64,000 bases of DNA, from the NCBI GenBank assembly GCA_045837725.1, contig JBEWZL010000053.1, forward strand, positions 1 to 64,000, given 5' to 3'. Shown piece by piece: positions 1-57,755 of this stretch. Source of the stretch: Vermamoeba vermiformis (lineage: Eukaryota). How positions within the stretch are numbered: the stretch's first letter is position 1; each line of letters opens with the position of its first letter. Both the position numbers and the translations under genes were made by a program. The notes under the pieces were generated by a model, which did no database searches, was not told the DNA's origin, and worked only from the letters and a program-made list of their open reading frames with translations.

Positions 1-2052
1 TAACCTTTCTATTATTAATTTAGGTGCCCGTTAATAAATATTATGACGAAATGGGATGCAATAAATACAATTGATTGATAGGACACTTTTCAGTAATCAC
101 GACACGAGCTGTGGATATTCTACGAGATATTTAAATATTTAATTTTATATTTTAATATTTTATGTATTGTTTGATATAAAACGGCGACTTATTACAGAAT
201 GATTAATAATAACATCCCCTTCGTCCCAGATCCGCCAGCAATTTCGGTGCATACATTATTTTGTATACACAGATTATAATGTACACGAAAAAGGAGAACC
301 AATTAGCCAAGTAATTAACAATGTTTTATTCAAACAAAGTGGAGAATACAATGACGTTGGAAAAGAGATCGCTATTCCACGGAAGAACATGTGAGACTAC
401 TGGGGCATCTTTGTGTAGCTCGGATCCAGACTTTTCCGGCTTTTGTTATAGCCCATGCCTCGTAGATCACTTGGTCAAGCGCTGTTGCTGGCGCTAGCTG
501 AACCAACAGTCTTGCCTCTTCTACAGAGAGTCGTACGTACTTGCGGTTTTCAGCGTCGGTAACGCAAACTCTGATGCAACTGCAGGTAGGGTAATTTACT
601 GGGTTCCAGTCCATGTTCATTTGTGGTCGTGTTTTGCTGTTTGAAGTTAAAAAACTTATTTTTTTTTCACCGGTTATTTTGTTACCTTGTCGAAGCCTCG
701 ACAACCAGAGCTCTGTAGACCAAACCAATTAATTGTCAATGTAATTAACAGTGCTGTCTCGGAAACGGATTATCAGGTACTTTAATTCGTGACTGGCAGT
801 CTGACATACGGATGTCAATAAATATTTTTCATTTCAACCCTTCGTTTCTTGAATAATTCTTTTTATTAATGGATATCCCCCCCACCTAGCATCTTTCATA
901 GCGCGTAAGGCTTAGGACACTGACTTACAAGTACGAATAATTTTTTGTATTGTTTTGGATGCAGGTTTTATAGCACTCAAGTGACGCACTACACGGCATA
1001 AATTCAAGTGTAGCACGTTTCGAAATCAAACCTGGCTTGTCAACGCTCAGCTGTAGCCACATTCCTAAAAGTCCTGCAGAGAAATTTTCGGTACGTAAAA
1101 CCTTACATTTTCCAAACCTCTGAAGGGTTAGTTTAGGTCGTAACACGCGAGCTACGAGGTTTGCGAGGGTTTGAAAGCCAGTGCGCACCCGTGGGTTTGC
1201 CAGAGGGATGAGCAAACCCTCTGTTAAAACAACGTAAGTCAAGGAGTATGCCTTGTCACGAATATTACTAACAGCGTTAGCAGTGCACGGAATTAATGCA
1301 TTCATCAATTATTCTTGCCAAGGGCTAGCACAGAGGAACGAGACTCCTGTTTGTATACACAATCGGTGGAATGTATATGACAAACAAATTTGTATACACA
1401 ATTTACAAAATGCACATGTTATTTAAAGTAAATGTCCCTGTTGTACTGTAGACTCTCCTCAGTGTTTCCTTTATTATTCTCGACTGATAAATGCTTAAAA
1501 ATAGGAGCAAATTCCGTTCCCAAGTCCTAAAGATGCAAGAGCACTTGTATATATACATAACAGATTTCGTATACACATTCACTCTTTTTTAATGCGGACT
1601 GGGTAACAACTGGAAGGAAGAAGAATAACACAATTTAAGTATATTAATAGGCATTTCCTAAAAATGCTTTGAAAAAAGCGTTCATGGAACCATAAGCAAT
1701 CAAACTTTAAATTTTGTATATACTTTTTTATTTTGTATACGCATTACACGGCAAGTTTCATTGTTTAATGTCACAAAAGCCTATAAACCTAAGCCAGCCT
1801 ACTCCTAAGGCTATATATAATTCTAAGTAAATTAAAGTTAAACTTGTCTCTTAGTGTTTTTATTTTGGCATGCTTTTCAATGCAAAAGTGACTGCAAAAA
1901 GACAAAAAAAGTCAAAATTTAACAAAAAAGGGGTTTAACTGGACTTTAAACTCTATAACCCTTAAATTTCTATAACCCAGAAGCCTACTATAATTTGTTT
2001 ATTTTAGTAACTTTTCAAGGCTAGCCCTATATGGCCAGGCCATTTTACATAT

Positions 2053-2074
2053 GGCAAGATCCACGAGTCTCAGC
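2053..2074 (+). repeat. Left terminal inverted repeat
   Basis: GGCAAGATCCACGAGTCTCAGC, exact reverse complement of 7258-7279. Confidence 0.95.
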
Positions 2075-2267
2075 TTATGAGAAATTGTAATATGTAAGCA
2101 GAACAAGAAGAAAACTGTAAAAGTTTAACAAAAATAAAGGCGTTCGATGATGAAACTGCAAAATTTAAAGATAAAAGGAGTAGTAAAATAAATTCTAAGA
2201 ATACCAATTTATTTAGTTAGTAGAGCAAAAACCTTCGAGCAAGGATAAAAAGATCTACAAAAAGTGC

Positions 2268-4993
2268 TTAGTCGTCTTCTTCTGTTAAAGCAAATCGACG
2301 GACTGGTGACATTTGCCCGTCTTCTGCATCACCAACATCAGCTTCTTCAACATTGTTGTTGTTGAATTTCGGCATTGGAGTGGTTCCTCGGACACTTGGA
2401 GTAACAGGCAACAAAGGCTCATCAAAGGCGTCTGGCAAAAAAGCTTTGGCTGGAGTGCTTGGCTGTTGGGCTGTCCCCTCAGGTGCAGCAAGAGAGGACA
2501 CAGCAAGGGCAGTAGAGACAGCTAGAGCAGCCTGGGGGTCATCGACAGAGCGGCTCAAAACTCGGCAAACGTGGGCTTTAATCTTGTTCTTCAGTGGGCC
2601 GTTGGTGATGTAGCCCACGTAGCTGCGGCTTGATAGGGCAGCAGCAATGTAACCGGTCTGTAAATGAGTTAGTAAAGCAAGGCGAAGGATACAACACGAC
2701 ATACACCAGATAAGTTGTTGAGCTCCAAAATAACACCATCAGCAGGAGTGTACACAGAGAAGATGAAGCACAGAACCTGGACTGGAGGTTGGCGGGGAAA
2801 CAATGCCGTTGAGGTCAAACTGAGCTTTTCACGAAGCATCTCGTAAGCAGGAGGTGTTTTAAAGACACCATGCTGCCAATTTGGGTTGTAATGCCCATGC
2901 TTGACCCAGTTACCTTCATTGGTATTAAAACATGGAGCATTGCCAGCACGAAGGCGCAAGAAGTAGAAATCCCACGTGGTTTGAACAGGATTAATGCCAG
3001 TGAAGGACTTAACAGGAGGGGCGCTCAGGCATGCAGTGTACTTGAACTCGAAAACCAAAGGATTCTGTGGTTGAGAAAGCGAGTGAAAAATTGAATACGC
3101 TGCGCTTGGATCCGCAAGAATGACCAGGCGAGAAGAAAGGTGCATGCATTTCAGAATTGGCTGCAGCAAGGAGTTGCGGAATTGCTCAGCATTTTCAAGC
3201 ACCAAGAAAATAAGATCTGCTCTGAGCTGCAGCTGAATATGAGAGAAGGAGTTCACCACTCGGAAATGCGGGTCAAAATGCTTTTCAACATTAGCCACCA
3301 AGTCTTTGCGGAAGGGAACATCCTCGTCCACGTCACTCTCAGATTCATCATTGCCAGGCGCAGTAATGACAGCGCCTTCACTATCGTCCTTCTTCTGTGA
3401 AACGTAATGAGAAAAGAAAAACGCGCGGCGCGTTTTTGGTGACTTACATTTGTACGTGACTTTTTTTGTGGTGGTTCTGCATCTGCAGGTGCAGCAGGGT
3501 CGCGGTCTCGTTTTCGGGATTCCTTTTCTGGAACAGGGAGATCAACTGGCAAGCGTTCTTTAAGAACCTTATCTGCACCTTTCGTGTTCTTTGAGGCAGT
3601 AGGTGACTTCTACAAGGAGTCAGATTGGTGGGGGCAAAAACGCGTGGCGTGTTTTTAAGGGTACTTACAGGTACTGTTTTTGTTGTTGCAACAGCTTTGA
3701 CTTTCACGCTTTTCACAGCAACAGAGGCGTTCAAATCTTTGATGAAGGCTTGCATTGCAGCACTCTCCAAATCATTTGCCGTAGCGGTCTCCAATGCTTC
3801 AAAAGTTCCAGCTTGGATTGCTTCCACATAGTCTTCCAGAAGATCCGCATTGGGTGCCTGCTGCCTGACATAATCAACCATTGAAACAATGTGTGCTTGA
3901 CGAGCAACGATGCCAGAAAACTCTGAAAATGATTAGATGGTAAAAACGTGCCACGCGTTTTTGCTTACCAGTCAAACTTGCTTTGTTGTCGTTTTTGATA
4001 GCCCACGACACAAATTCCTCAATGGCAGCAAGTTTGTACATATCGTCCAACTTCCAGAATGCTTTGTTCTCAGTGATGCAAGATAGCTTCATGGGGTTTT
4101 TGTAGCCGTACTTCAGATGCAACTCCTTGAGTTTCTTGTAAACAGCGTTTTGGGCAATGTCTTCCGCTCCTTTGTTTGTTAGCTTGTTGTATGCGGTGTA
4201 CAACTTCTTGGCCAAGTCCAACGCGAGCCCATCACGTTTTCCCTGTCGTCCTCGTTAGAAAGAATTATTGGCCTTCAAATATTGCTACTTACAGACAACT
4301 GGTGAATGCGTGCCCAGTTTACCGTGACCTTTTTTCCCTTCGTTTTTGTTCGTACACCAGGCATTTCAAGGTACCGAATTAGCTTCTGCAGGTACTCGAA
4401 CCAAGGGGCTTTGGCAGTACCATCTTGCGCTTTAGCATTATTTGCACCAGCAAGAACCTCGCGTTCTTCTTCAGTCATGGTAACTCCGTTGAGAGAAGCC
4501 TTCAAAATGAGGCATGGCCACTCTTCAATATCACTACAAAAAGTTAGCTAGAGCAAAAACGCGTCACGCGTTTTTACTCACTGGCTTTGTAAAACTTCAA
4601 AACGGTGATTTCCACCAAGAATTAGGTACTCGGGCTTCTTATCTTTGTTAATTTTGTCTTCTTCGGGAAGCTCTTGTAACAGAAAAGGCTCGCTATAATC
4701 CAAGCCTTTGTCGAAGTTTCCTCCACCCATCTTTATTATTTGTTGCTCGATGGTTTTTTTGCCTTCTTCCGTCACCAAACGGTAGTTTCCTGAATGGAGG
4801 TTAGTAAAAACGCGCCACGCGTTTTTGCTCCCGTACCTCGTTTTGTCATTTGAGACAGCAGAACATTGCGTGGCTTATCGTACTTCAGCCATTTCTGGAG
4901 CAGTTCTATGGGCTTGTCTATGTTGACAAGCTGTTGTTCCTCGTCTGTATCCTCCTGTTTCTTGGAGGTATTTCTTTTATTTGTGTTGCTCAT
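2268..4993 (-). CDS. Transposon accessory protein: N-terminal ParB/Srx-like domain plus C-terminal degenerate beta-class N4/N6 DNA methyltransferase fold (8 exons)
   Basis: Removing introns 4790-4836, 4534-4581, 4243-4292, 3923-3968, 3610-3668, 3395-3447 and 2658-2704 (all GT-AG) gives one continuous frame. ParB-like: GNYRLVTEEGKKTIEQQI...YLILGGNHRFEVLQSHDIEEWPCLIL. MTase-like: ADLIFLV...FPRQPPVQVLCFIFSVYTPADGVILELNNLSGTGYIAAALSSRSYVGY. Confidence 0.75.
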
Positions 4994-5718
4994 GTTTGAA
5001 GGGAATGAATAATGACCGCATAAAAATTTTTTTTGTTCGACGGTTTGACCAAACGTTGACCGTTGACCAAACGTTGACCAGGTCCAAAAGGAAAAACGCG
5101 CCACGCGTTTTTGCCATTCATATGGTTAATCACAACAACAATGGACACACCTCTTCTTGATGTCGTTCTTGCTCTACCTCCGCACGAAATTGAGCCTGCT
5201 ATTTTGGACGTTTTGCAGCATCATCGCATCACTCTGCACTTGCGTGTTCTCAAGCATGCTTCTGTCCAGCATGCTCTGCTATCAAATTACGGTAGATCCC
5301 TGCGGATTGCGGCAAGCAGTGAACGCACTTCAGGGTTCTTCCGTGGATCTTTGTCCTCAATGCTTCACGCTTCGATTGACAAGGCAGCAGTTGCTTCATT
5401 GCTTAATGTATCACCAAGTAGCGTTTCTCGTGCGCTTTCCATTTCAAATGAACGCTATCACAATGGGTTAATGACTGGCATTCACAACAAGTTTGCTTCC
5501 CCCACCAAGTACAAAGTTAGTCGACTTCCCGTGGCCACCTCCATTGTGACTGATTGGATAATTTCACACTGTCGCCCTTCTGCAAACTCGGCAAATGTTG
5601 TTCGCAATCGCAATGCTGATGGCACATGGTCTTATGAAATAATGCACTACCGCAATGAATCAATTGCAGAGCTGTTCACCAAGTACAAGGCAGGTACCAA
5701 AAACGCGTGACGCGTTTT
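3417..5718. repeat. Seven dispersed copies of the 21-bp palindrome AAAAACGCG-NNN-CGCGTTTTT
   Basis: Copies at 3417-3437, 3636-3656, 3942-3962, 4555-4575, 4806-4826, 5092-5112 and 5699-5718, each with 0-1 mismatch. Six lie in introns and one in the divergent promoter. Confidence 0.95.
4994..5140. promoter_or_regulatory. Bidirectional promoter of the transposon genes, with TTGACCAAACGTTGACC direct repeats and one palindrome copy
   Basis: 147 bp between divergent ATGs, tandem GTTGACC(AAAC) repeats at about 5044-5080, palindrome at 5092-5112. Confidence 0.55.
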
Positions 5719-7179
5719 CTAATACCCTTCCTTCAGGTGCAACATCAAGCAGATGCTGTTGGCAAATCTACGTTCTATTCACTTGTGCCCAAATGTGTTT
5801 ATCTTCAGCCCTACTATTCTGGCCTCTGCCCAACATGTGCATCTGATAAACATTGGCAAATGATGCTTAATCGAAACAGGCGCTCTTGGCATGCCGACTG
5901 CCACTGCCAGTGCACCTACTGCACAGTTTGCAACCATGCTCTGTCATGCCCTGCTGATTGTGTTTGCAAAGGTGATGAGTGTCCTATTGAAATGTCAAAC
6001 ATTCCACAACAATGGATTGTTCCTCAGGCCAGCAAGGCTCTGCGCAATGACCGTGACAAGCATGCCCCAAATCAAATGGTACATGTATGGCAGCAAGGCA
6101 CGCGCCGCCAGTTCATGGAGAATTGCAGTCTTGTTGCTGAAAGGTGCACTGATCACAAGCTTCATGTTTCTTGGCAAAAGCAAGTTATTTCAACACTTAA
6201 GAAAAAGCTTCCTTGGAACACTGTAATGATGCGCTGGGATTTCTTGATGAACTATTCCCATGTTAGCTCAGTTGAAGTGGGCAATGCTTTCTATGGGCGC
6301 CGCCAGTCTACTGTTCTAATTGCCACTGTCTGGTATCATGGACCTGACAGTACGCCAGAATCCCCAAAAATCACCAAAACCTACCATGCATTTGTCAGCC
6401 CTTACCTGTCCCATTCTTCTTTGGTTTTTCAGAAAGCATTTGCTGCACTACTTCCACAATTGGATTTGCACACAGATGTTGTCAACTGCATCATTCTCTC
6501 CGATGGTGGCATGCAGCATTTTAAAAACAGAATCTCAATGCATTGGGGAACAACTGTCTTCAACAAGTTCAACATCCGCTTACGTTGGATAATTGACCCT
6601 GCTTACCATGGCAAGGGTGAATGTGATGGCCGTGGTGCTAAGCTGAAAAAGAAAGCTAAAATTCATGTTCTCAAGGAAGATGGTTTCCTTGATACTCCAG
6701 AACAGCTAGCCAATTATTGGAATACAGTGCCAGGTGGCACTTCTTCGTTTCTCAACATAGACTGGGAGGACACAGAACAGGATGTGCAGACGATAAATGG
6801 CATTAAAGCCTGCTATGACTTCTGCTTCTCACGCAATGAAACTCAGTTGTACATGAGGAAATGGCCTTGTGTGTGTGCCGACTGCCTTGACTTTAACTTT
6901 GGCAGTTGCAAGCGAGGTGCTCAAGTAGGAGAATGGCTGTTTCGTCAGACAAAGCCAACCAATGTAAATCACCCAAAAGGACTCAACCCTCCTGTTGTTG
7001 TGGAAGAAGAAGTCGAACACTGTGAGGTTGAGAAAATTGTTGGTAAACGTATGTTCAAAGACAAAGTACAGTATCAGATTAAGTGGCTTGGTTTCACCGA
7101 AGAGTACAATGAATGGAAGTACGAAGATGAAATGGATTGCGAAGACCTTGTTCTTGCTTTTGAAAACGATCACAAATAA
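5141..7179 (+). CDS. Sola2-like DDD transposase with Cys-rich region and C-terminal chromodomain (2 exons)
   Basis: GKSTFYSLVP, CPTC/Cys cluster, catalytic Asp codons at about 6238 (WDF), 6502 (SDG) and 6625 (CDG), CxCxxC motif, chromodomain EVEKIVGKR..KVQYQIKWLGF.EEYNEWKYEDEMDC. One intron at about 5690-5736. Confidence 0.85.
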
Positions 7180-7257
7180 AAATGCAACCCTTTTATTTTT
7201 GTACAATAACAGCAATTTCAACATAAAAATAAATTCTTGTAAATATTGGCGGTTTTG

Positions 7258-7279
7258 GCTGAGACTCGTGGATCTTGCC
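7258..7279 (-). repeat. Right terminal inverted repeat
   Basis: GCTGAGACTCGTGGATCTTGCC followed by ATAT. Confidence 0.95.
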
Positions 7280-7299
7280 ATATATGAATAATCAAAAAC

Positions 7300-9096
7300 A
7301 TGACACAATCAGCAGAAAACCAAAGGAGGTTTTTAGGGCATTCAACCCCACTGATGATACTAAAGGTAACTTAAATGATATTGATTCTTATAAAATTAAT
7401 CCAAAAAAACTCAATCAATAGCTATATAAACTAATCTGCTTACTTGTAGTCTCAATCAAGCAGTGAAAGGCCTTTGCTGAGAAAGTCTACAAGCAGACTG
7501 GTGAAAGAATCCAACAAAAAGCCACCCAGAATATTCATTGCCATGAAAAGAAGTACAATGTGTGAGTGTTTCTTCCTGGTGAGATCATGTGAGTGGATGT
7601 AGGCAAACAGTCAAAATTGAAGAAAAAACGGGAAGTAAAGAAGGCAATAGTTGTAGTGATACTTACCAATAACTACTATCTCATCGAATTTTGGTGAAGG
7701 AGATCAGCAAGGAAAGCAAAAAGAGTTTGGCACGAACAACTTGAGTTGTATTTCAAGAATGTCACATAGAACTTTGTTGGCATCCAAAAATATTTTTGAA
7801 TTAACTTCATCGACAACTACTTCAAATCTTTTTTTTACATCCTTGTTCACTTGATTTTTTAAGTCTACTAATTTATCTATTCCAGGCAAAACTTCATCCA
7901 GCTCACCAAGTTGCCGAAAGGTCTTGTAAGCATCATCACTCATTAAGCCTTCCATTTTGGCTAGTAGCAATTGTAAACAACTATTTTAAGCTTATTATCT
8001 ATACCTTTTTACAATACATTTTGCCTCTCTTGCTTGGCAACGTCAGTTGGGGTGCTGCATTAGTTAACATCCATTGCCGAACAGCAGCTAATATTGGATG
8101 AATAGCTTTGCAAATACACGTTGCTACCTCTTCAATTGATAATTGTTCATTAACAAGCAAATGGTCAAGCATCTGCAGCAGTCCCTCAATCCTCTTCATT
8201 CAGAACCATTTGGTGGCTACAAGTCCAGCTGGAACTCTATGCCTACCTGGCAAGTTTCTATTTTGTTGCTGTTGCATGCTGAATAATAAAATTCAACTGA
8301 TTTACAAAACATAATTAAATTTTATTTTTACCAAATTAGTACATGACTATCACGCTACATCATGAACTGCACAAACTTAATTAAATATAGTACCTTGCTC
8401 TTTCTTTTTCTCTTTTCACTGCAAACCAGAATTGGACACGACATACCTTGGATTTGATACAATAACTCCATTTGAAATGACCTTGGCGAAGCTCCAAGTA
8501 ATATGGATTGTTGTTTGTGTCTACTAATGTTTTGTTACTGATGTCCTTTCCGAACACGGTAGTGATAAGTTGTGTAGAATTGAAAACTCCACGGACACGT
8601 GTACTGCTTTGTGTTTGGTTTCCTTTGAGCCTCTCCTTCAAAACAGTCCATTTTAACTCTGACGCATCGAAATTGGCAAACAACAGATTTGCAAAGGCAA
8701 CGCTGGGCAACTAATAAATTAATTAATTTATTCAATTAATAATATGTATTTCACTTACCCAAAACTGAAACCTTGCTCGTGGCCTTCCATTGCATCTTTT
8801 TCCCTATTTGGCCTTCGATATAAGCATGAGCCTCATCCGCCACCAAACTTGAGCCAGCGTCGTTATTCACCAAATTTTCCAAAATAGTGCTCTCATGCAT
8901 TATGTGTGCTGTCCTAGGAGTGAGGCGACGACGTGAAACAGCCCGCAATGCTCGTCTTAGTTCTTCATCTTCAGTTCGGCGACGGATGGGACATTGGAAA
9001 CCCCTACGCAGCTCTGGGGTGGCTCTTCTAGCAGGCAAAACTCGTGCACCAGATGAGACGCTGAGTTGCACTAAAGTAGCTTCAGTTGAAGACATG
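7300..9096 (-). pseudogene. Degenerate multi-exon gene, possibly an older transposase-like gene interrupted by the Sola2-like insertion
   Basis: Fragmented minus-strand ORFs (8751-9155, 8381-8710, 7999-8199, 7704-7970) with stops. The segment MSDDAYKTFRQLGELDEVLPGIDKLVDLKNQVN resembles the 'S..Y..lR...lP' N-terminal motif of Transib/RAG/P-type transposases. Part of the region appears CpG-poor by eye. Confidence 0.3.
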
Positions 9097-10892: not shown

Positions 10893-11955
10893 ATGGAACC
10901 AACAACATTATCACCCGAAGCATTGGCTAAAGTAAGTCGAATCTGTCACCTCTAACAAATAGAGTGTCAAGATTTGTTCAATTTTACGGCCATAATTTAA
11001 TATTGCCGCAGATCGAAGCCAACCGTCAAGAAGCGCTCGCTAAGAAGCAACAGGCCGAGGAACGGAAGAAAGCGCAGATCGAAGCCCAGATCGAAACCAA
11101 TCGTCAAGAAGCGCTCGCTAAGAAGCAACAGGCTGAGGAACGGAAGAAAGCGCATATAAGGGTAATTACACCATATTACTCAACTTGATAAGCGCCGTTG
11201 TCTAATTCCCGGAAAAGTCATTGATTGCTGAACTTCTCTTCCTGTTTAGTTGCAAGAAGGCGTCGTGCACCTTAAACAAGTAGTGAGACCACAAGAACAA
11301 ATTCAATTGTACGCTGATATCGCTGAAGGTGCCAAAACATACGCGGCAAAGCAAGCGAGGAACCGGAAGAGCAATTTCAAAAAGATCTTGACTTACAACT
11401 GGGAGCGAGACGCAGCCAAAGTTCCCGACAGCTTCGAATTCTTCAGCACACTGGCGTGTAAAGAAGCGAGTACCGTATGCAGCACGATCCCACCAGCGTT
11501 CAAGCCCAATTACGTCACTGCCTTTTGCTACCCCCAGAAAGACGGGCGATTAAGAGGTAGGCGCTTCATAAATTCTCACACCACTTACAAAATAACGCAG
11601 GCCACGTGGACAAGGTGCTTGGTTGGGTTGTCTTATTCTCGCTTGGGTGCACGTGTAAGTTTTGGATAAAAGGCCCACAGATGCAACGGAAACAAAGTAA
11701 GCCAAATTTACAACTGTCAATATTAACATTAATTATAATAATTTTCTAGCAATCGACTTTGAGTCGGGAGACGTGCTTGTATTCAATGGCGGTACCGAAT
11801 ACGGCATCCAGCATGGAATCGATACCATCGTGCCCCAATCATGTCCTGAACACTTGAATAAGGACTTGGCGCACTGTAGAGTTAGTCTTCAATTTCGTCA
11901 AACCTTGCGAAATGATATTGTCCGTAAATTCGGGTACCCGAAAAAGAAGCACTAG
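10893..11955 (+). CDS. AlkB-like 2OG-Fe(II) dioxygenase with duplicated N-terminal RPA-binding-like helix
   Basis: Spliced YP..DGRLRGHVD (HxD), VVLFSLGC, ESGDVLVFNG, HGI, RVSLQFRQ. N-terminal LSPEALAKIEANRQEALAKKQQ, repeated. Confidence 0.8.
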
Positions 11956-12183: not shown

Positions 12184-15100
12184 ATGTCTAAACGTAAGTT
12201 ACTTACCCACCTTTGAGCCTAAGCGGACCTCACGGATCGATCTTGAAAACTTTTTCGGCTTTGCAATTTCATTCTTGCTAATTTTAATGCCTTACTACAG
12301 CGTACGTGGTTAGATTTAGAGTTAATTATCAAACGAACCCGGGCCAAAATGTCCTCGTAGTTGGAAATGACAAATCTCTTGGCGGATGGCAGCATCAATC
12401 AGGCCTTCACTTGTCTTACAGCGCTGGAAATAATTGGGAAGCTGAAATTCAATTATCAGATGTACCAAATGGTGTATTGGAATACAAGTACGTGCTTGTT
12501 GATGAGGGAACAGGATGCGTCTTTTGGGAAGCCGGCAGCAATCGAGTCGTCAACTTGAAGGAAGAACCTACTGGCGTAGTTGATATGCGCGACACCTGGA
12601 AGGTAAATTTAATTTTGCAATTTTAATCACGAAAATTTTTCTCGTGGATCCACACCGCAATTTTACACCTACAAATGCAATTTAACAAAGTTTTCGATAG
12701 TGACTCGCTTTCTGATAATTTTTGAAATTTTTAGTCCACTCATTTGCCCGAACTAGCCTACTTGCACACGACTTTGTTCCGAGATGTCATTTTCGGCCGC
12801 GACGTCGAGACTAAGAAGCGCTTTGATGGTAAGACTATTCTGTTAATTACTGCGCACATTCTAATAGTACCTTAGCTGCTTCTGTCAAGAGCTCATTAGT
12901 TGTGCGCTTCAAGATCACTTCGGGAATCACTTCTCCAAAACACAAAATCGCTGTCGTTGGCAGCTCTGCAGCCCTTGGAAGGTATTATACATTTCCAGTG
13001 CTTTTACAGTATACTAATGTCAACTATTCAGCTGGGATGTGTACAAGGGTGTAACTTTGCAATACACTTATCCCGACTTTGAGGCGGATGTAATCGTTGA
13101 TGTGCGCGATTTGCCTTTGGAGTACGTAGCACAATGCATATTAGCAATTGCAAATCCGTCCTAACACATTTGAAATTAGATACAAATACGTCGTGGTCGA
13201 TGAACACAACAACGTCGTAGAATGGGAAAACGGCGGCAACAGAGTGATCGAATTGGACCCCAAAATTGTTCGCGTCTTCTTTGACGATCAGGGTAGAAAT
13301 TACACTGTTAAAACGACCGATATATTCAGAGTACGTGCCCAGTTTGAAAACATTAGCGCTGTTTTGTCTGACCCTTTGTTTACAGCGAGGCAATTACAAC
13401 TGGCGTGCCATGGGTGTCGCCATTCCTGTATTCTCACTACGTACCCGCCAGTCCATGGGTGTCGGTGAGTTCTTGGACTTGAAGCCCTTCGCTGACTTGT
13501 GTAACAAGGTACGTTAAACATGTGGTTCGCGAGGTATTATTTGACTGCTAACTTTCTGCTCTACAGTTCGGCTCTCGTCTTATTCAGATCTTGCCCATCA
13601 ATGACACGTCGTGCCGTCTTAACTGGCGCGATTCCTACCCTTACAGCGCTTTGTCAGTCTTCGCGTTGCACCCCATCTACTTGCGCATCAAGAACTTGAC
13701 CGATGACGCAACTATTCTCAAAGAAGCTGAAGCCGCTGCTCAAAAACTCAATGCATTGCACCAGATTGACTACGAGGCCGTGTACAACACCAAGATCAAC
13801 CTCGCCAAGCGCATCTACTTGGCTCAAAAGAAGAACTTTGCTGCTTCGCTGCCCGCCCAAGACTTCATCAAGGAGAACGACGAGTGGTTGACTCCTTACG
13901 CCGTATTCTCGCATTTGCGCGACGTTTACAAGACAAGCAACTGGGCCAAGTGGGACGCCAAGCACAAGAACTTGAGCACTGTTGAGATCAAGAAACTCGC
14001 TGAAGAGTTCCAGGACGAAGTTAGCTTCAACTACTTCTTACAGTACCATTTGCACGTGCAATTGAAGGAGGCCACTGCCTATGCCGAGAGCTTGAAGATC
14101 GGAATTAAGGGTGATTTGCCTATTGGTGTCAACCCTGCTAGCACTGACACTTGGACCAATCCCAACCTCTTCCGCATGCAAATGTCCACTGGTGCTCCTC
14201 CCGATCAATTCTGTAAGTAATATCGTGCACTAAAGTCGTCACCAATCGACTAATGCGCTGACAGCTGAGGACGGTCAAAACTGGGGCTTCCCTACTTACA
14301 ACTGGGCTGAGATGGCCAAAGACAACTACGCTTGGTGGCGTGCTCGTTTGCAATCGATGGCCAAGTACTTCCACGCCTACAGAATCGATCACATTCTCGG
14401 ATTCTTCCGCATTTGGGAGATCCCCCGCAGTTCTTTGAGCGGTCTCATGGGCTACTTCAATCCCAGCACTCCTGTGCACCGACACGAACTCGAGCGCAAT
14501 GGTTTGTGGGACATTCAGCGATTTACCGAGCCCTACGTTCGATGGGGTCTGTTGGAATACTACTTTGGCTCTGATGTTAGTAGAACAGCCACTACAGTGA
14601 CGGCACGATTAACACTACCCTACAGGCCAAATACGTCTCTGACACGTACTTCTATGTTTACGGCTGGGATCGCTTCCAGTTCAAAACCGAATACAACACT
14701 GAACGCAAGGTTTTGGACCACATCAAGTCACTCCCTGGTATGTTCTGGCGATTAAACAATTTAATTGCATCGTATTAATGCGGTCGCAGATGACTCCGAT
14801 GGTGCTCGCAAGTGGCGTCAAAAGCTTCAAAAGGGTCTCGTAGCCTTGCAACAAAATGTCATCTTCTTGCGCTACCCCGACAACCCTGACATGGAATTCA
14901 TTCCTCGTGTCAACTTGCACCGCACAATTTCATTCCAAGAACTCGACGGCGATACTCAACGCTCTCTTTGGAAGCTGTACGTCTCTTACTACTTTGAGCG
15001 CCAAGAGTCGCTGTGGTACAACATCGGCATGAACCGCTTGCCCGTCATCAAGAACGCCACCCGTATGTTGGTGTGCGGTGAAGATTTGGGCATGGTTCCC

Positions 15101-15659
15101 AAGTGTGTCGAGCCTGTCATGAATGACTTGTCTATTCTCGGATTGCGCGTTCAACGGTAAGTCGTTGCCCTTAACTTCCGGTCCTTCAAGTGCTAATGTC
15201 TCCTTCAGTATGCCAAGCGACCCTGAAGAGGAGTTCGGACACCCCGCGCACTACGGCTACATGACAGTCAACACGACGAGCTCGCACGACACATCGAGTT
15301 TGCGTGCCTGGTGGGAAGAAGATCGCGGCAAGTCACAACACTTCTGGAACACCGTGCTCGGTCAACAAGGTGCTGCCCCTTGGTTCTGCGAGGACTGGCT
15401 CGTTGAAATGATTCTCCGCCAACACTTGCACAGCCCGTCAATGTGGGCTATCTTCCCCTTGCAAGACTTGTTCGCTCTTCGTCACGACTTGCGCGTTCAA
15501 GACCCCAACAGCGAGCGTGTCAACGTCCCTGCCAATCCCAAGCACTACTGGCGCTATCGCATGCACGTCTCCATCGAGGACTTGCTTGCTAACGAACACT
15601 TCATTGGTCACGTGAAGAGTTTGGTGCGCGAGAGTGGTCGTGCTCACGAATACATTTAA
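12184..15659 (+). CDS. DPE2: 4-alpha-glucanotransferase / disproportionating enzyme 2 (two CBM20 + GH77)
   Basis: CBM20 (VRFRVNYQT.PGQ...LGGW, YKYV, WE.G.NR) twice. GH77 motifs DSYPYSALSVFALHPIY, KGDLPIGV, GAPPD, NWGFPTYNW, RIDHILGFFRIW, CGEDLG, SSHDTS, YWRYRMH. Confidence 0.95.
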
Positions 15660-26566: not shown

Positions 26567-27457
26567 CTTGGGTTACTATAGAAATAAATAGCTAACTAAA
26601 TACTGATACGTGACTTCGACGTGATCGGGTAATGTGGTGTTTGCTTCGCGCAAAAATTGCATTAAATAACATTGCACACTAAACTCACAGCGCCGCCAGT
26701 CACGTGACTACTCACAAACTCCTAATAACTCCGGGACCGAATTCACTGCTGCGCGTTAGTGAATAGTTTCCCTATTTTATTTGCACCAGATTGTAAAGTT
26801 GCCGAATGAATCCCGCGATAGGCCGAGGAATTAAATATGTTTGTCGATCAGCTGCGCACTTTTGGACATTTATCCTGTAGGCTAACGGTACATCACCCAG
26901 TTATCTAAAAATATTCTATATCCTTCGGTGATGGCGCTACCAAACTTCAATGCACGTTTAGTCGGAGACAGCTCCGAATGGCATTGGAAATAATTATTAA
27001 TAATGAACATCTCCGGCTCTTGTCGTTCAAAATTGAAAAGTAATTTCTCTGTCAAATCCATGAGCACCTACTTTATTGCAATCGAGTTTGATTTGTTGAA
27101 CTGTCAAATTGAAATATAAGGTAATCGTGAATAACGCTTAATCGTAACACTTTTCACCTTATTTATACAGGGGAAATTGCGTCGTCATTTTGTAAGGTCG
27201 CGCGCATATAATTCATTTAATTTCACCTAGTTGTAACCTGGGGCCTGAACGAGCAGCAATCAGGAGTGCAAATTCTAATTGCAGATTTCCAAATTTTGGT
27301 ATTACGAACTATTCTCTTGCGGTTATGCGATAGGGTTTCAAGTAAATTTGGCCGAGCACAAATCTTACTTTTTTCTGGCCTGACGTCAGGCTCAACAACA
27401 GCTATTTATGCTTCATTATTTGCAAGTAGCAATGGTGCAGTAATACTCCTTGCTCCA

Positions 27458-28635
27458 ATGGGTATGTTTCATAGTACGAGCGGGAAGCATTTCTACCGGC
27501 CATACAAAATGGTGGTAGACTTAGTAATCCCCAAGGAGACTCTGCGCAAGATTCTGATCCGCGAAGACGAGCTCCGCTATTCAAAAGAATATTTGGAGAA
27601 GTACGATAAGGCTCAGCAAGAGAAAAGCTTGGGCAGAATTCGAGATGTAACTTTGGAAATTCAAAATCAAGCTTTGAAGGAATTTGGATATTGGGATATG
27701 CGAGGCATTACTGTTTTAAATAATGCTCGACACGAGTATAAGTAAGCGACATTTTTTAAAATTCGGCGTTACTTAAAATAATAATTGTTTGCTCTGATAA
27801 AACTTTCGCGTTCAGTATTAACATTAACGTCGATTAGAGACGACCCCGAGATGAATAAGCTCACTGTGTATATGCGATGCGACCATAGTACTGAAGGAGA
27901 TATCGCTAAACAGAAAATGGCTCCGGATGCAGCACTCGTGACTTTGAACGGCGAACAAACCTCTCTCACCTCATACTTGGCTTCATTGACTCCCAAACTG
28001 TACGTATATCATGTGGCCAATGTAGTCGAAGCTAATTCAACTGTATCAGACCTGTGGTGATTCTTTCAGGCTCGTTGACATGACCTCCGTTTCGTTTTGC
28101 AATTGAAGAGATGAATCAGTTGCAAAAGAAATATGAAGGCAAAGCACACTTTATCTACGTGTACATTGAAGAAGCTCATGCTGAGTGAGTAGACGAACAA
28201 ACGTGAGATATCTGGTTGTTTATCTAACGTTGATTTTGTAGTGACGAGTGGCCGTTGAGCACCACGTTCTGCATCAAACAACACAAAACAATGGAAGAAC
28301 GACTGACTGCAGCGAAGATGTTGGTGAATGAGTTCGGTTCGACCATTCCAGTGCTTGTTGACTCGATGGCGAATGAGTTCAACACCAAGTACTCTGTCTG
28401 GCCTGAGAGGTACGAGCTTCTTATTCAGAGTTTGTAATGACTTATCAGTACTGATATTAATTTATCGAAATTTAGATTCTTCATTGTGGGTGGTGAAGGC
28501 GAGATGATTCTTGCGGCTTATCCGACTACCGAGTTCGGATTTGATCGTGGTTTGATTGACACGCACTTGCAAAGCTTGACAGTGCCTCCTCAGGACAAGG
28601 CGGCTGTAGTGATGCAGGAAGCGCAGTCAAAATGA
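27458..28635 (+). CDS. Iodothyronine deiodinase-like selenoprotein, copy 1 (Sec codon TGA 28081-28083)
   Basis: Spliced PKLPVVILSGSLT-TGA-PPFRF, VYIEEAHA.DEWP, IKQHKTMEERL.AA, VLVDSM.NEF..KYSVWPERFFI, i.e. deiodinase thioredoxin-fold motifs. SECIS downstream. Confidence 0.9.
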
Positions 28636-28683
28636 GTGTAATTGTTAGACTAGTTATGTCCAGCGTAGCATTCTTATGCAACT

Positions 28684-28752
28684 CGATTTCGTGATGACAA
28701 AGTGAACGGTCAAACTCTAATTTAAAACGAGTCCCGTCACTTTTGAGAATAA
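28684..28752 (+). promoter_or_regulatory. SECIS element (type II-like) of deiodinase copy 1
   Basis: ATGA(28694)-CAAAGTGAACGG-TC-AAA-CTC...GAG-TC-CCGTCACTTTT-GA: AUGA/GA core, stem, unpaired AAA, apical mini-stem. Confidence 0.85.
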
Positions 28753-29868
28753 GAAGCGGTTGTTTTAGCGAGTGCGAAGCTGCAAGGAGCTAGTTTGTAA
28801 ATAAAAAATTGTAGTTAGCGCAAAATCAGTTTCAGGTCTTGAGACAATTATAGAATTCAGATCTTCCGGTAAACTAATGATTGACGTTCAGCAATCTTTT
28901 TGACAGATAAGTGCAGCGATTATACGATATTTCAATTATATTACATTATATTAGTACATAATATTTTTTCAATTCAAAGGTTTCGAAACCTCTCCAACAC
29001 CTGTACGGAAATAAGTGAAAAGCTGAGATGACATAGCAGTATCGATGGCTACTCACAACATCGAGCGCAATTTCTGACAGATCTGTTGAGCCAATTTCGC
29101 AATCAATGGCCCTTCACAACTTGTCGAAACAAGGCTTTTTGAGATGCAATAATCATCTTGAGCTTAATGGGAGATTGATCGGGACACCATAGTACAAATA
29201 TGATTAGATTTCGAACGGTTCCATTGTTTTGGGTGTACGTAATTCTTTTAACGGCGTAGCAAGGCTCTTTTTCAGGTAGATCGGCTAAAAACTATAACAA
29301 TAATTAATATCCTTGCCGTATAACAATTTATTGCCGAGTGATACCTGTTCGTAAGAGGATCCTGGACTTCCGAATTTATCGATCGTAATTGAATTTGTAG
29401 AACGGTCGTATTTGAAAGTAATGTAACCATAGACTTGAACGAGTTTTTAGTGCTTCAAATTCTCGAGGACATGCTTCTGAAATAGTGATTGCGGCAGAGG
29501 GAGGAGGCAGCTGAGTGTTTAAAATAAACAAAATAAATAAATTAAAAATTTGATTATAGGCGTTTTGAGTACAGTAATAATGCATACCATCTCACAAGGC
29601 TATTTAGAAAATAAAAATATTAATGCCAATTGCAAGCGTAGTTCAAACCTGCTTACCATGTCAACCATTTTGGCTTTGAAACGATATAATTTGCAATTGT
29701 ATATATATAAGAGTAATTTTGGCTTCGATTGTTGCAATCGTGGTTGCGCAATGAAATTGACGTTCTTAACTATTTCTGTCCACTGGAGAGTCTTTTGTCC
29801 TCCCATGCAAAATAAACCTCAAGAAGACTATTTCAAAACCAAACGCGATCTAGATACCACAGCCCGCA

Positions 29869-31179
29869 ATGGGCATGTTTCATAGTACGAGCGGGAAGGA
29901 GTTTTACAGCCCCTACAGCCGGCATGTTCGTTGCGAAATACGGAAAGAAACGCTGAAACAGATATTGATTCGTGAGGATGAGCTCCGCTTTTCGAAAGAA
30001 TATTTAGAAAAATGTGACAAAGCTCAACAAGAAAAAAGCTTGGCGAAAATTCGAGATGCGACAATTGAAATTCAAGATCGAGCTTTGAAGGAATTCGGCT
30101 TTGAACAAAAGAACTGGCCAGAATAGTATTGTACAATGCGCGTCACAAATATAGGTATATTTAATTTTAATAATCAGTTTAAATTCAAAATATTGACGTA
30201 AATTGACAGAGACGATCCCGAGATGAATAGGCTCACAGTGTACATGAGACACGATCACAGTGAGAGAGGAAATTTAATTCCTAAATATGCAGGATATCCT
30301 CAGAGGAAAGAAGACTACACAGCTCCAGATGCAGCACTCGTGACTTTGAACGGTGAACAAACCTCTCTCACCTCCTACTTGACTTCACTGACTACCAAAC
30401 TGTACGTATATCACATCGCCAATGTAGTCGAAACTAATTCAACTGTATCAGACCTGTGGTGATTCTTTCAGGTTCATTGACATGACCTCCGTTTCGCTTT
30501 GCAATTGAAGAGATGAATCAGTTGCAAAAGAAATATGAAGGCAAAGCACATTTTGTCTACGTGTACATTGAAGAAGCTCATGCTGAGTGAGTAGACGAAC
30601 TGACGTGAGATATCTAGTTGTTTATGTAACGTTGATTTTGTAGCGACGAGTGGCCGTTGAGCACCACGTTCTGCATCAAACAACACAAAACAATGGAAGA
30701 ACGACTGACTGCAGCAAAGATGTTGGTGAATGAGTTCGGTTCGACCATTCCAGTGCTTGTTGACTCGATGGCGAATGAGTTCAACACCAAGTACTCTGTC
30801 TGGCCTGAGAGGTACGAGCTTCTTATTCACAGTTTGTAATGACTTATCAGTACTGATATTAATTCTTATTCATACTTAATCGTACGATCTTTCTCCTCTG
30901 CCACGGAACTTATCTACTTGCGTAAAGCCTTATTAACATGTTGCATTAACTAGATTCTTCATTGTGAATTGCGAATCCGAGCTGCTTTACGTTGCCTCTC
31001 CAACCACAGAGTTCGGCTTTGATCGCACTGAGATTGACAGGGAGTTGCAAAGACTTTCAGCTCCCGCCTCAAATCCAGAGCCGACTTCATCTGCAGAGAC
31101 CGCTTTTGTTCCCGTGCCCCCAGCGACCGTGCCCAGTCCAGGCATACAAAAGACTGAAGATGAAGCTAAAGATGAATAA
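29869..31179 (+). CDS. Iodothyronine deiodinase-like selenoprotein, copy 2 (Sec codon TGA 30483-30485), with apparent 1-nt frameshift near 30105
   Basis: Paralog of 27458-28635 with the same intron positions and GSLT-TGA-PPF. Exon 1 shifts frame before IVLYNARHKY. Confidence 0.8.
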
Positions 31180-31229
31180 CACATTCATTATGGACGTCTA
31201 ATTACTTCAGCGCGTATTCGCAGGGCAAC

Positions 31230-31300
31230 TCGATTTCGGGATGACAAAGTGAACGGTCAAACTCTAATTTAAAACGGGTCCCGCCACTTTTGAGAATAAG
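31230..31300 (+). promoter_or_regulatory. SECIS element of deiodinase copy 2
   Basis: ATGACAAAGTGAACGGTCAAACTCTAATTTAAAACGGGTCCCGCCACTTTTGAG, nearly identical to the copy 1 SECIS although the adjacent last exon diverges. Confidence 0.85.
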
Positions 31301-31458
31301 AAACAGTTGTATTAGCGAGTGCGAAGCTGTAGATGCGTCTAATTGTAGTAGTAATAGTAAGTAAATAGCGATACCTAAATTTGCGTCCTGAGCTTGTGTC
31401 CGATAAAAATTTCTGCGCAGATCAAAAGCTTTTAAAGTTGACCACGCATACCACATCT

Positions 31459-36300: not shown

Positions 36301-37252
36301 ACTAACGCTTCATTAACTAGCGATTGATGTGCAAAGTGACGGAACTTTAATTTTCAACGTTGACACTTCATTCGAAGCCTACTGTTTGACACTCGATGGC
36401 TTGGTTGCCGTGAACATGCCGAGAGATAATCAACTAGAAGAAGGGTCTAGCACAGTAGAGCTATTTAAATACGGAGTATTGTATTCAACGCCGCCAACAG
36501 ATCAATTCTACATCGTCGACAATGAGAAGTGCGTCGACTACTCAATTCAACAGTGGATTATTACAGAGCCGAATAATGACCAGTTTGGAAGTATAAGCGT
36601 CGTATTATCAAAGAACCGAATCGTTGGATGCGTGGATCTATCTGAAACAGAGTCGCTGATCATTGGCTTGGTGGTTGGACTCGGATCCCTGTTAATTTTG
36701 GCGGGAATTGTCATTCTGATCTTGTGGAAGAAAGGAAAGCTACGAAAGAATATCAGACCCATATCAAAGACTATGTTGAACGTATTATCAGCCGAAAGGT
36801 CCTTTTTGACATCGGTTTCATCACTGAAAGTAGAAAAAGAACTTGGATCCGGCAGCTTTGGCAAGGTCTATATTGGTAAATGGCATCAAACTAAAGTAGC
36901 TCTGAAATTCTGCAACGTTCCTGGAAAAATGGATGAATTTCTTCAAGAAGCTTCGTTGATGATGAACTTGACGCCGCATCCGAACGTGTTGCAGTTGCTA
37001 GCTATCAGTATTGATGGTCCAGAGCCAGTCATAGTTTTAGAATATTGCGATGAAGGTGCATTGGACATTCTGCTCTTCGATACAAACGAAAGAGTCTCGC
37101 AAGAAAAACAGATCGCCTTAGCAACAGGTACGAATTTATTTCTTCAATTCAATAATATTATCTAGTAGATATATAGTAATATGATACATTAGGTGTTGCT
37201 AGAGGCATGCTTCACTTGCACCAAAATAACTTGATCCATCGAGATCTGGCCG
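33335..37252 (+). CDS. LRR receptor-like tyrosine-kinase-like (TKL) kinase; kinase domain breaks off after HRDLAA
   Basis: Signal peptide, many LxxNxLxGxIP exons, TM LIIGLVVGLGSLLILAGIVILILW, kinase GSGSFG, VALK, HPNV, HRDLAA. Confidence 0.85.
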
Positions 37253-37489
37253 CAATTCTCTTAAGAGAAGATTGAGTCGCGATAAGATGCCAGGAGAATT
37301 GACGCAGAAAGAAGAGAGCACCCACGAGAGCACAGGGGCTGTACAGTATTTTGTATTGTTTAGAAGAGTAGTGAAAAAAAAATAGCCGCCCAGGGCGAAG
37401 AGAGGAAGAAAAAAAAAAAACATAGCGGAGGAGGAGAGGCGAAAAAACCCACGGAGGGCCGGGGGCCCCTATCCCGTGGTGGACGGATG

Positions 37490-39356
37490 GCAGTCCGTAC
37501 CAGATGCGAAGCTCGGTCAGCTTGGTTAAAGTCGATAAATAGCAGTAATCTTCGTCCGAGGCAATCTGATGGATGCTAAGGCTGTCCAATGCTGTCAAAG
37601 TTGAAAAATAGCTGCAATAGTGTGTTTGGCGCGGATGGAACGAGAGCGATTTTAACGTTGTTAAAGCAGACACATACGTGTAATCAGTACTAGAATGTGT
37701 CATCCAATCATGGTTAAATTCTAACTTTGTCAAGCTCGTCAAACCGGTAAATCCGGTGAGCAGGCTGGAAGGTGAGGGAGTTATTATCAGACGCTCCAAC
37801 TTTGGCAAGTTCGAAATTTCAGCGGAACATCCTTTGAGTTTCAGCCAGTCCAAATTTGTAAAAATTGTCAGTGGGAAGCCAAGTTCAGTGTCTCCGTTGT
37901 TAACTTCAATCTGCAAACATTCCAAACGAGTTAGTTGCGATATCGCTGACAGGTCTTGAAATTTTTTGTTTTGGGTGCCAATGTAAAGCTCTCTCAGTGA
38001 AGTTAATCGCGAAAAGTAGCTCAAATCTAACGGCCTGCAAATTGTAATTTGCAACTTGTTCAAGTCCGTTGGTGCGAATGATAGTCCATCGCCTTCCATT
38101 GGATCTATATTCAAGTACTCTAATGACGTCAGTGCTGCCAACCATTGATATGAATATCTTTGTCGTGGATTTACATGCAAACTGTCATCCGTTTCGCTGC
38201 TCGATTCATTTTCTTCGAGCGGTTCAATCTCGTTGTCATTATCATTATCATCTGAACCATTGGGTTCTTCTTGACCGTTATTATCGTTATCATCACCAAT
38301 GTCGTTATTATTTGCACCTTCGTCTGCTGCAAGCTCTTCGTTCTGCTCATCGTCACTGTCGCTGTCATCGCCCAAAATATCCAAATCCAAAATGAACTCC
38401 TTGAGATTGCGCAACTTGTCAACTGCTCGCTCGATATATTGCTCCTGTGCTTGGAACAACTCTAAGAACGTCAATTTCGTGCTGTTCAACTCGTGGATCT
38501 GACCTCCAGCAAAACAAATGCTTTCAAGCGAAGTAAGCGATCTTAATGATATATCATCGCCTTTATGATTCCGAACTGAAAATTGCAACTCTTTGAGGTT
38601 ACCCACGTTCTGAAACCAATTTTCGGCTGTGCTGTGGGCGACGTCCGGCATGTAGATTGAGAGATACGTCATTTTTGAATAAGGCCGCTCGAATAAGTTA
38701 ACTTCAAGGTCATGATCTAGTCCTATAGACAAGCTTTGCAACTTCGTCCATTGTTTAATAGCTCTTAGAATCATTTCTTTGTCGACTTCCTCGCTGCTCC
38801 AAGGTAGGTTGAAACTGGTAAGGTGCTGCAGGCTCGTTATGGCCTCTAATGGTATATTGTAGTCGTGATTGGCTACTGTTAACTGAGTGAAGGTTAGGCA
38901 ATGCTGTCAATTTGAACCATTCTGCTTCGACATCGGATTCGTCTTCGTCAAGATCGTCAAACGAGAGATCCGTCAAATTTGTCAGTCGGAGTAAGTGTTC
39001 ATTGATATCTTTTAAGCTCTTCATGATGTTCTTACGAAAATTAAGACTGATTGGCTTGGTGTAGGACGAAAGCCGATCCACGATCTTCGGCCACTCTGAA
39101 TGCTTCGTCAAATAAATTTCAAATTCTCTGTAGTCAACTATATTGAACCATTCTCTGCATGCTAGGCGGGCTAATCTTCTCGTTTGGTCATCGCAGATAT
39201 TTAAAATAATTTTCTGAAGTTCTTTTGGTATATCCTAAATAAATAATAAAGATGACTTAGTCGAGCGAAAATTCTAGTAAATACTGGCAGCTACCGAATT
39301 GTAGATTTAATTAATGCCAAAAAATACCAACTGGATCGTTCGTTTTTACGCACCAT
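37490..39356 (-). CDS. F-box/LRR protein with acidic insertion; apparent frameshift near 38870; 3' end lost in garbled sequence
   Basis: F-box DIPKELQKIILNICDDQTRRLARLACREW, repeated LTxLxxLxL motifs, D/E/N-rich stretch. Confidence 0.7.
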
Positions 39357-57064: not shown

Positions 57065-57755
57065 TATTATTGTGTTGTTGTATGTATATAACAAAAACAG
57101 ATATTAAACTAACCTGGCACTTGGTTTTTATGCTTTTCGAAAGGACTTGACACGGTGGCGTTTTGACAGTTAATCAAACTTCGAAAGTTAAAAATCTTCT
57201 GTTATATAATCGCTACAATAGATCTATTGCTTACCCCTTATTCTGTGGATTTAGTTTTGGAAGGCTCCGCTGGTTTCAACCCCTTTCAAAACCGTACATT
57301 CCGTACGGAAAACTCGCTACAGGCGTGTAGCCGTTTTGGATGTACTAAAGTTACTAATGAGTCTGTTTCAATCATAAATCGAGGAGCACTAGTGCTATTA
57401 GATTATTACATAGTGGTCAAGCACAGCGGAAGTTATTCTATTTGTACGAAAATATTTTTCGACCAACTGCTTAATTATTAAAATTAGCTTTCAAAAATTG
57501 GATTTAACCTAATGAGCGAAAACGTACTGTACGGTTACATTTAAATCGGTCGATTAAAAAATTAAAAATAAATTTTGGTAATTTTAGTATTGAACGTTAT
57601 GCTTTAATAAAGGGTTATTATGCACATGTAGTGCGAAAATATAATAATATTACCTTCCATTATATTTCTTTCGGTTTTGTATAAAATCAAAGATACTTGG
57701 TGCACAGAAAGTCAAGCGGACAAACTATTTCCACATTTTTTCTGAAGAAACCAAA

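Follow-up and report, generated by a model that had tools for sequence, protein, structure and literature searches.

Giant algal transposons have lately been seen to carry accessory proteins in which a ParB-like part is fused to a DNA-modifying domain; none of these proteins has a demonstrated function. Accessory genes that combine a ParB-like domain with a DNA methyltransferase on eukaryotic transposons have already been published: in the accessible part of that account, the 21.5-kb transposon Sola1-1_Ec32 of Ectocarpus encodes a 1104-amino-acid (aa) accessory protein with ParB-like and N4C/N6A methyltransferase domains, which its authors predict to be a working methylase (PMC12477816). In Bostrychia, as far as the available text goes, the Plavaka accessory gene PAG3 joins a ParB-like domain to a 2-oxoglutarate (2OG) oxygenase, and the inverted-repeat arrays adjoining it are proposed binding sites (bioRxiv 10.1101/2025.02.11.637652). 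Here we describe a small element with two genes, gene A and gene B, in Vermamoeba vermiformis (assembly GCA_045837725.1), within the first 64,000 nucleotides (nt) of contig JBEWZL010000053.1, the stretch referred to throughout as the window. We put the probability at roughly 0.6 that gene A is an accessory gene of a eukaryotic DNA transposon of about 5.2 kb bounded by terminal inverted repeats (TIRs), and that its product combines a ParB-like N-domain with a degenerate domain derived from a permuted (beta-class, PF01555-type) methyltransferase. Our data establish the gene model, both remote homologies, the absence of the motifs, the TIRs and an array of palindromes.

Gene A lies on the minus strand (Table 1). 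All seven of its introns are of the GT..AG type and 46-59 nt long, and the frame is open once they are spliced; when the product was compared with the window by tblastn, the only matches were gene A's own exons. The C-terminal third of the gene corresponds to positions 2540-3260, which an earlier sequence-only reading had singled out as a cryptic beta-class DNA methyltransferase fold with erased catalytic motifs; the minus-strand letters of this region, and the intron at 2658-2704, are exactly as quoted there. The splice signals of that 47-nt intron (2704..2658) are GTATGT at the donor, TACTAAC at the branch site and CAG at the acceptor; once it is removed, ...ILELNNLSG reads on in frame into TGYIAAALSSRSYVGY.

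An exhaustive phmmer search of 1.84 billion representatives with the 230-aa exon 7 yielded four relatives, P0001-P0004, all of them fragments (111-336 aa) with 32-66% identity. No further relatives came from word-index searches, whether exon 7 or the family alignment was the query, and DNA encoding relatives of gene A was found neither in two metagenome contig scans nor in one IMG/VR scan. The family alignment used below (n = 5) consists of spliced aa 445-705 from the window together with trimmed P0001-P0004.

For comparison we assembled a set of viral methyltransferases, starting from Escherichia coli YhdJ and its relatives in IMG/VR. Of 74 loci, 42 were picked by hand, near-identical and partial ones being left out, and one of these was dropped for stops, leaving 41 PF01555-type proteins; seven proteins of this kind were run against Pfam, and all seven were assigned to PF01555. 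When the family alignment was compared with the 41 proteins using hhalign, there was a single local match of 54 columns, placing aa 629-682 of the gene A product on residues 193-246 of YhdJ (Prob 70.9, P = 3.8e-5, score 40.4). Within this block FPRQPP is paired with HPTQKP, ILELNNLSGTG with VLDPFxGSGTT, and RSYVGYI with RKFIGIE. None of 150 column shuffles reached 40.4 (mean 13.7, sd 2.5, maximum 23.5), and the reversed alignment scored 15.5. The match held under other match-state settings, and with query and template swapped it was still obtained with Prob 46.5 (P = 2e-4).

Similar results were obtained with other profiles. A second set, made up of six phage ParB-methyltransferase proteins, matched the same block in the same register (P = 8.7e-4), with the qualification that one of the six, locus L132, turned out to have no methyltransferase part. 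This locus, from a prophage in IMG/VR, encodes 461 aa with a Rac-type ParB start; C-terminally, this protein showed no alignment to the five phage ParB-methyltransferases. On relative P0002 the profile phrog_18293 ('methyltransferase') matched residues 170-221, i.e., the same block, with an E value of 9.8e-5, and NCBIfam PRK13699 ('DNA methyltransferase') matched the same residues weakly (E = 0.12). By ESM Atlas features, 17 of the 30 matches of P0002 fell in the PF01555-carrying set (best score 0.91), the top three clusters being unnamed or misnamed. A P-x-Q-x-P loop preceding the helix-strand unit is typical of the PF01555-type family and not of Rossmann folds generally. These comparisons support a relationship between the putative C-terminal S-adenosylmethionine (SAM)-binding sub-domain and the N6/N4 DNA methyltransferases, and indicate that the motif X-I-II block of PF01555 is present at the C-terminal end as remote homology only. 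The N-terminal half of the domain is supported only by consistent spacing, by the predicted order of strands and helices, and by weak collinear HMMER alignments of two relatives to a methyltransferase hidden Markov model (HMM; P0002 residues 50-98 and 174-220, P0003 residues 28-164). The strand spacing predicted for the domain agrees with that of YhdJ to within a few residues, except that the first helix is shorter.

We then asked which residues of the methyltransferase motifs are kept. Spacing, the structural models, and the P0002 and P0003 alignments from HMMER favour one register, in which the DPPY place after the strand ADLIFLV is taken by LENA in the window and by LDSA, TCTG and QCMG in the relatives; these residues are not conserved and contain no proline pair. 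In a weaker, alternative register the strand is RLVILA, followed by DPSA, APDA, EPEH or EPED. In either register, (D/N/S)PP(Y/F/W) straight after strand 4 is absent from the four sequences that cover the site, and the statement of the sequence-only reading that DPPY is degenerate was borne out. A DPPY-like tetrapeptide does occur about 35 residues upstream of the predicted strand, after an acidic linker (DVPF in the window, TVPF and TPPW in two relatives).

At motif I, the Asp position is occupied by E in the window and A in P0002, and the next SAM-binding place compared in the alignment by N and E, respectively. The glycine loop reads L-S-G-T-G in the window, where the first Gly is replaced by L and S-G-T is retained, and L-T-G-A-S in P0002; the companion claim that FxGxG is degenerate was thus half right, the window having kept L-S-G-T-G. 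The motif II acid at the end of strand 2 is I in the window and M in P0002. The domain retains the P-x-Q-x-P helix-loop of motif X, SGT from the glycine loop, and R..G in the strand that follows. From these residues we infer that the domain is without catalysis, and probably without normal SAM binding.

Structural models were made with AlphaFold2 for P0002, using the five-sequence alignment (mean predicted local distance difference test score, pLDDT, 45.1, with residues 40-95 near 76), and for exon 7 of the window (pLDDT 42.3). In both, the elements run strand, helix, strand, helix, strand, strand, a long irregular stretch, helix, strand, which is the order expected of the permuted methyltransferase class. 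When the P0002 model was compared with the Protein Data Bank (PDB) using Foldseek, all ten matches at E <= 0.001 were chains of N6-adenine DNA methyltransferases (M.BceJIV, seven; M1.HpyAVI, two; Mbo45V Mod, one), the best having an E value of 6.8e-5. The next matches were to a rotifer N4-cytosine methyltransferase, TTHA0409, MTA1 and METTL14, the METTL14 chains being among the weaker ones. The methyltransferases matched by P0002 are permuted. A complete, seven-stranded Rossmann-like methyltransferase fold would be likely, although the two models taken together do not demonstrate it.

For the N-terminal region, a scan of IMG/VR with the Rac prophage ParB gave 80 near-identical loci that were unfit for building a profile. 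The ParB set was made instead from nine phage records, spread across the identity range of a tblastn search with a Rac prophage ParB fragment, and the profile comprised 11 N-domains from these nine records and one IMG/VR locus. Using hhalign, aa 53-157 of the gene A product matched this profile over 77 columns (Prob 46.2, P = 2.1e-4, score 31.9), with the G-x-x-R box in register, i.e., GGNHR on AGHGR. None of 150 residue shuffles reached 31.9 (maximum 19.1), and four other 210-aa slices of the product scored 11.6-23.8. When the full-length protein was aligned with the ParB-methyltransferase alignment, there were two collinear matches, at aa 109-170 and then at aa 626-673. These results support the assignment of the N-terminus as ParB-like. 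A two-sequence ParB profile and pairwise BLASTP gave nothing significant; nor did the ParB_N HMM (PF02195) match any of the separate exon translations, over three of which the domain is split. No ParB_N domain was found in four large viral records. Elsewhere in the product, aa 237-259 (approximately 4140-4070, minus strand; the KYGYKNP region) aligned to the 'fGf..P' of the phage ParB profile with a score of 23.8 (P = 0.005), exceeding every shuffle of the N-terminal query; this segment may be a degenerate repeat of the ParB_N-like domain.

Gene A and gene B both lie within the inverted repeats, their start codons on opposite strands and 147 nt apart. The repeats stretch to 31 nt at 94% identity (2044-2074 and 7258-7288), giving an element from approximately 2044 to 7288, of which the window holds one copy; the flanking bases allow only an ambiguous TA/AT target-site duplication. 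The gene B product has a weak helix-turn-helix (HTH), a Cys-rich cluster, a conserved D..D..E-like core, and a C-terminal HP1-like chromodomain at 7024-7167 (Pfam Chromo, E = 4e-9). It has six relatives with 52-89% identity and 103 invariant columns. No transposase family was matched in Pfam, PHROGs or PDB, the PDB profile search returning chromodomains only, and the only clusters retrieved from ESM Atlas were eukaryotic and unnamed, DUF7869 being present in 12% of one; a literature search on DUF7869 gave nothing. From its sequence features gene B would be transposase-like. Its closest relative, P0005 (89% identity), stands for a cluster of eight sequences, a hint of a multi-copy element in another assembly. 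Three RNA runs carrying the same species label had no reads on 1994-7600 save a poly-A artefact near 1900; their coverage of this strain lacked a positive control, and they are silent on expression and splicing. Within the 147-nt spacer, at 5041-5085 and adjoining palindrome copy 6, four close copies of TTGACC form a short direct-repeat pattern, which may be a second set of promoter elements.

The element also contains a palindrome, AAAAACGCG-N3-CGCGTTTTT (19-21 nt), which occurs seven times in the window compared with an expected 0.01, a number that none of 100 shuffles reached. All seven copies fall inside 3418-5718: five in introns of gene A, one in the sole intron of gene B, and one in the spacer, so that six of the eight introns are occupied. 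The intronic copies start 5-12 nt past the 5' splice site, and those introns hold hardly anything besides the palindrome, the two splice sites and a branch site; the gene A introns at 4292-4243 and 2704-2658 have no palindrome. We rejected the idea that these introns are genome-wide 'introner' insertions, because all seven palindrome matches in the window sit within the element. The palindromes in introns may act in DNA, as binding sites, or in pre-mRNA, as hairpins. To carry cis-elements inside minimal introns is unusual for coding genes, and no description of palindrome arrays embedded in introns was found in the main texts searched.

Table 1. Positions of the element's features, followed by host genes of the window
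Feature	Position	Strand	Details
Left terminal inverted repeat	2049..2074	plus	26 nt, perfectly complementary to 7258-7283
Right terminal inverted repeat	7258..7283	minus	pairs with 2049-2074
Gene A	2268..4993	minus	8 exons, 791 aa; stop codon within last exon
Gene A exons	4993-4837, 4789-4582, 4533-4293, 4242-3969, 3922-3669, 3609-3448, 3394-2705, 2657-2268	minus	
ParB/Srx N-domain-like region	4428..4789	minus	aa 53-157, spans intron 2; GGNHR where phage has AGHGR
Methyltransferase-like domain	2589..3253	minus	aa ~480-685, spans intron 2704-2658
Statistically supported block	2598..2806	minus	aa 629-682: FPRQPP, ILELNNLSGTG, RSYVGYI at HPTQKP / motif I / motif II places
Gene B	5141..7179	plus	2 exons (5141-5693; 5753 or 5750 to 7179), ~659 aa
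Palindrome copy 1	3418..3436		gene A intron 6
Palindrome copy 2	3637..3655		gene A intron 5
Palindrome copy 3	3943..3961		gene A intron 4
Palindrome copy 4	4556..4574		gene A intron 2
Palindrome copy 5	4807..4825		gene A intron 1
Palindrome copy 6	5093..5111		147-nt spacer between start codons
Palindrome copy 7	5700..5718		gene B intron
Host gene	13552-15659		split GH77 4-alpha-glucanotransferase
Host genes	36317-38906		Tyr/Ser-Thr-type kinase adjoining leucine-rich-repeat (LRR) protein
Host gene	56093-57103		calcium-binding EGF protein

The sequence-only reading had taken gene A to carry a ParB-methyltransferase module of prokaryotic or viral type, adopted by a eukaryotic transposon and with its catalytic motifs gone. 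This is largely supported by the hhalign matches of both domains, their collinear order, the TIRs and the chromodomain-bearing neighbour, whereas the full fold is not established. A number of results weigh against our interpretation of gene A and must be set beside those that favour it. Pfam gave no methyltransferase or ParB family with any exon (E <= 1) or with P0001-P0004 (E <= 10), PF01555 itself going unmatched. PDB sequences compared with the family profile gave nothing at E <= 10, our own small HMMs scored only 4-10 bits in HMMER, and hhalign against YhdJ alone was null. The proposed parallel with the methyltransferase consensus, although upheld in the C-terminal half by the hhalign match, did not extend to the N-terminal half (ADLIFLVL ... 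WDFYFL), which on its own scored 17.3, not beyond chance when 100 shuffles gave a mean of 11.8 and a maximum of 26.5. The structural check was similarly divided: the P0002 model finds DNA methyltransferases, with poor superpositions (query template-modelling (TM) score 0.27-0.32, root-mean-square deviation (rmsd) 10-14 A), whereas the window-exon model, from which the final helix and strand are missing, found nothing below E = 0.11, and confidence in both models was low. In BFVD there were no matches at E <= 0.001, methyltransferase names standing on 23 of 50 among the matches listed. The loss of motifs I-II across the family rests on two of the five sequences, because only the window and P0002 cover these motifs, and the upstream DVPF/TVPF/TPPW tetrapeptide could matter.

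Part of this evidence would fit a domain that is not derived from a methyltransferase at all, the likeness over 54 columns being convergence on a helix-strand-helix unit of Rossmann-like type and the rest a fold of its own. Significance is confined to the C-terminal block, as this explanation would have it, and the empty Pfam and PDB sequence searches, the poor models and the unmatched window exon all agree with it. However, the residues and register at which DNA methyltransferases are identified agree among three profile libraries or sets, the P-x-Q-x-P loop just before the helix-strand unit is matched too, and the ParB-like N-terminus yields the domain order of known ParB-methyltransferase fusions. 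The predicted strand spacing, which follows that of YhdJ apart from the first helix, also speaks against convergence, and we regard it as improbable. Still less credible to us is that the domain continues to methylate DNA (or RNA) by way of unconventional motifs, for example with the upstream tetrapeptide as motif IV and L-S-G-T-G as its glycine loop. An x-[V/P]-P-[F/W] tetrapeptide is kept in all three sequences covering that site, a greedy hhalign alignment places it on DPPY with near-zero confidence, and the window does retain an x-G-x-G loop. Yet the tetrapeptide follows an acidic linker rather than a hydrophobic strand and lies at a helix start in the models, P0002 has L-T-G-A-S in place of the glycine loop, and neither of the two sequences that cover the motif II acid keeps it (I or M instead).

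It is also conceivable, although in our judgment very unlikely, that the element is dead or the gene domesticated, so that the motifs would have been lost by neutral decay, or because the gene serves the host in a way that has nothing to do with transposition. The single copy in the window would be explained in this way, as would the rarity of a family with four relatives among 1.84 billion representatives. Against this, genes A and B are intact, with eight canonical introns between them, and the inverted repeats are perfect over 26 nt. Across relatives of 32-66% identity the domain and its non-catalytic residues are shared, which argues for constraint, and the closest relative of gene B represents a cluster of eight sequences.

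If gene A is a transposon accessory gene with a degenerate methyltransferase-derived domain, that domain would transfer no methyl group, its SAM binding probably being poor or nil, and would persist as a pseudo-enzyme that contacts DNA or binds a partner. A 'reader' role for it may be inferred. The ParB-like part would recognise the seven palindromes in the introns and the shared promoter, so that the protein would mark its own element; for the idea that such a protein binds its own transposon, the palindrome array is a concrete candidate site. A more elaborate proposal, which we hold to be unlikely, is a eukaryotic system of the ParB/parS kind carried by the element, in which seven parS-like palindromes would serve as loading sites for the ParB-like domain, and the dead methyltransferase domain would act on DNA as a clamp or reader and leave it unmodified. 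Jointly the two would protect the element against silencing by the host, or tie its transcription to transposition alongside the putative chromodomain transposase. Placed in introns, such sites would be spliced from the mRNA, so that no coding capacity is spent on them. The methyltransferase part is seemingly non-catalytic yet conserved and, if this is true, the accessory function needs no methylation and may rest on DNA binding. With two genes in 5.2 kb, the locus is a small and tractable case.

Several observations concern the remainder of the window, which also holds the host genes listed in Table 1; these genes and the introns of gene A mark the host as eukaryotic. Ten matches to TTGTATACAC were counted when one mismatch was allowed, a number that is not unusual (it was reached by three of 100 shuffles); six of the ten are clustered at 261-1742, in the AT-rich 1.8 kb to the left of the element. 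Two direct repeats of 71 nt with 94% identity, 78 nt apart, lie at 11009-11157 and form a coding-like unit rich in Gln, Glu and Lys. At 27456-31329 there is a tandem duplication of about 2.4 kb, marked by five repeat families at a common spacing of 2402-2547 nt, with 74-94% identity.

Phages and prophages provide counterparts of the gene A product, i.e., fusions of a ParB-like nuclease domain to an N6/N4 methyltransferase such as the 'DNA modification methylase' of Gardnerella phage vB_Gva_AB1 and of Streptococcus phages Javan422/346. The order is the same, ParB_N-like and then PF01555-type, and both parts are collinear with the gene A product. However, the phage fusions are approximately 360-445 aa long and have DPPY and an intact glycine loop, whereas gene A is a spliced eukaryotic gene for 791 aa, with about 320 extra residues between the two domains and without the catalytic tetrapeptide.

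Inactive methyltransferase folds have precedents elsewhere. According to the accessible part of a study of eukaryotic methylases, METTL14 and the methyltransferase-like domain of the retrotransposon DIRS1 are inactive, and a role as scaffold or in nucleic-acid binding has been proposed for them (PMC4738411). As would be the case in gene A, a methyltransferase fold has been retained after loss of the active site, in DIRS1 again on a mobile element; unlike gene A, both belong to other clades (MT-A70 and PCIF1-like), neither has a ParB fusion in the text available, and DIRS1 is a retroelement (PMC4738411). The same text, so far as it was accessible, describes Dam-like methyltransferases of chlorophytes and chytrids that are fused to a ParB-type HTH and are of phage origin (PMC4738411). 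These too join a ParB-related module to a DNA adenine methyltransferase in eukaryotes, but they are M.EcoKI/M.TaqI-like and not of the permuted PF01555 type, their ParB part is the HTH and not the N-domain, and that part of the text does not describe them as inactive (PMC4738411). For a catalytically degenerate ParB-methyltransferase accessory protein, no description was found in the main texts searched. Because the gene A family is so rare, being nearly absent from public protein collections, and is unseen by Pfam, similar pseudo-enzymes may go unnoticed in transposon annotation.

Among transposon proteins, PAG3 resembles the gene A product, on the available text, in being a ParB-like accessory protein with repeated inverted-repeat units on the same element; in that case, however, the effector is an oxygenase and the arrays are in tandem beside the gene, whereas here seven palindromes are dispersed in introns and the promoter (bioRxiv 10.1101/2025.02.11.637652). 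The Sola1-1_Ec32 protein, which we can set beside ours by its published description only, and by the accessible part of that, likewise has its gene within a DNA transposon, opposite in strand to the transposase (PMC12477816); at our locus the role of transposase would fall to gene B. The differences are that gene A's element is only 5.2 kb long and that its catalytic motifs are gone. Seen against these published descriptions, the gene A product would be an unusual variant of the transposon accessory proteins, known from algae, that pair a ParB-like domain with a methyltransferase.

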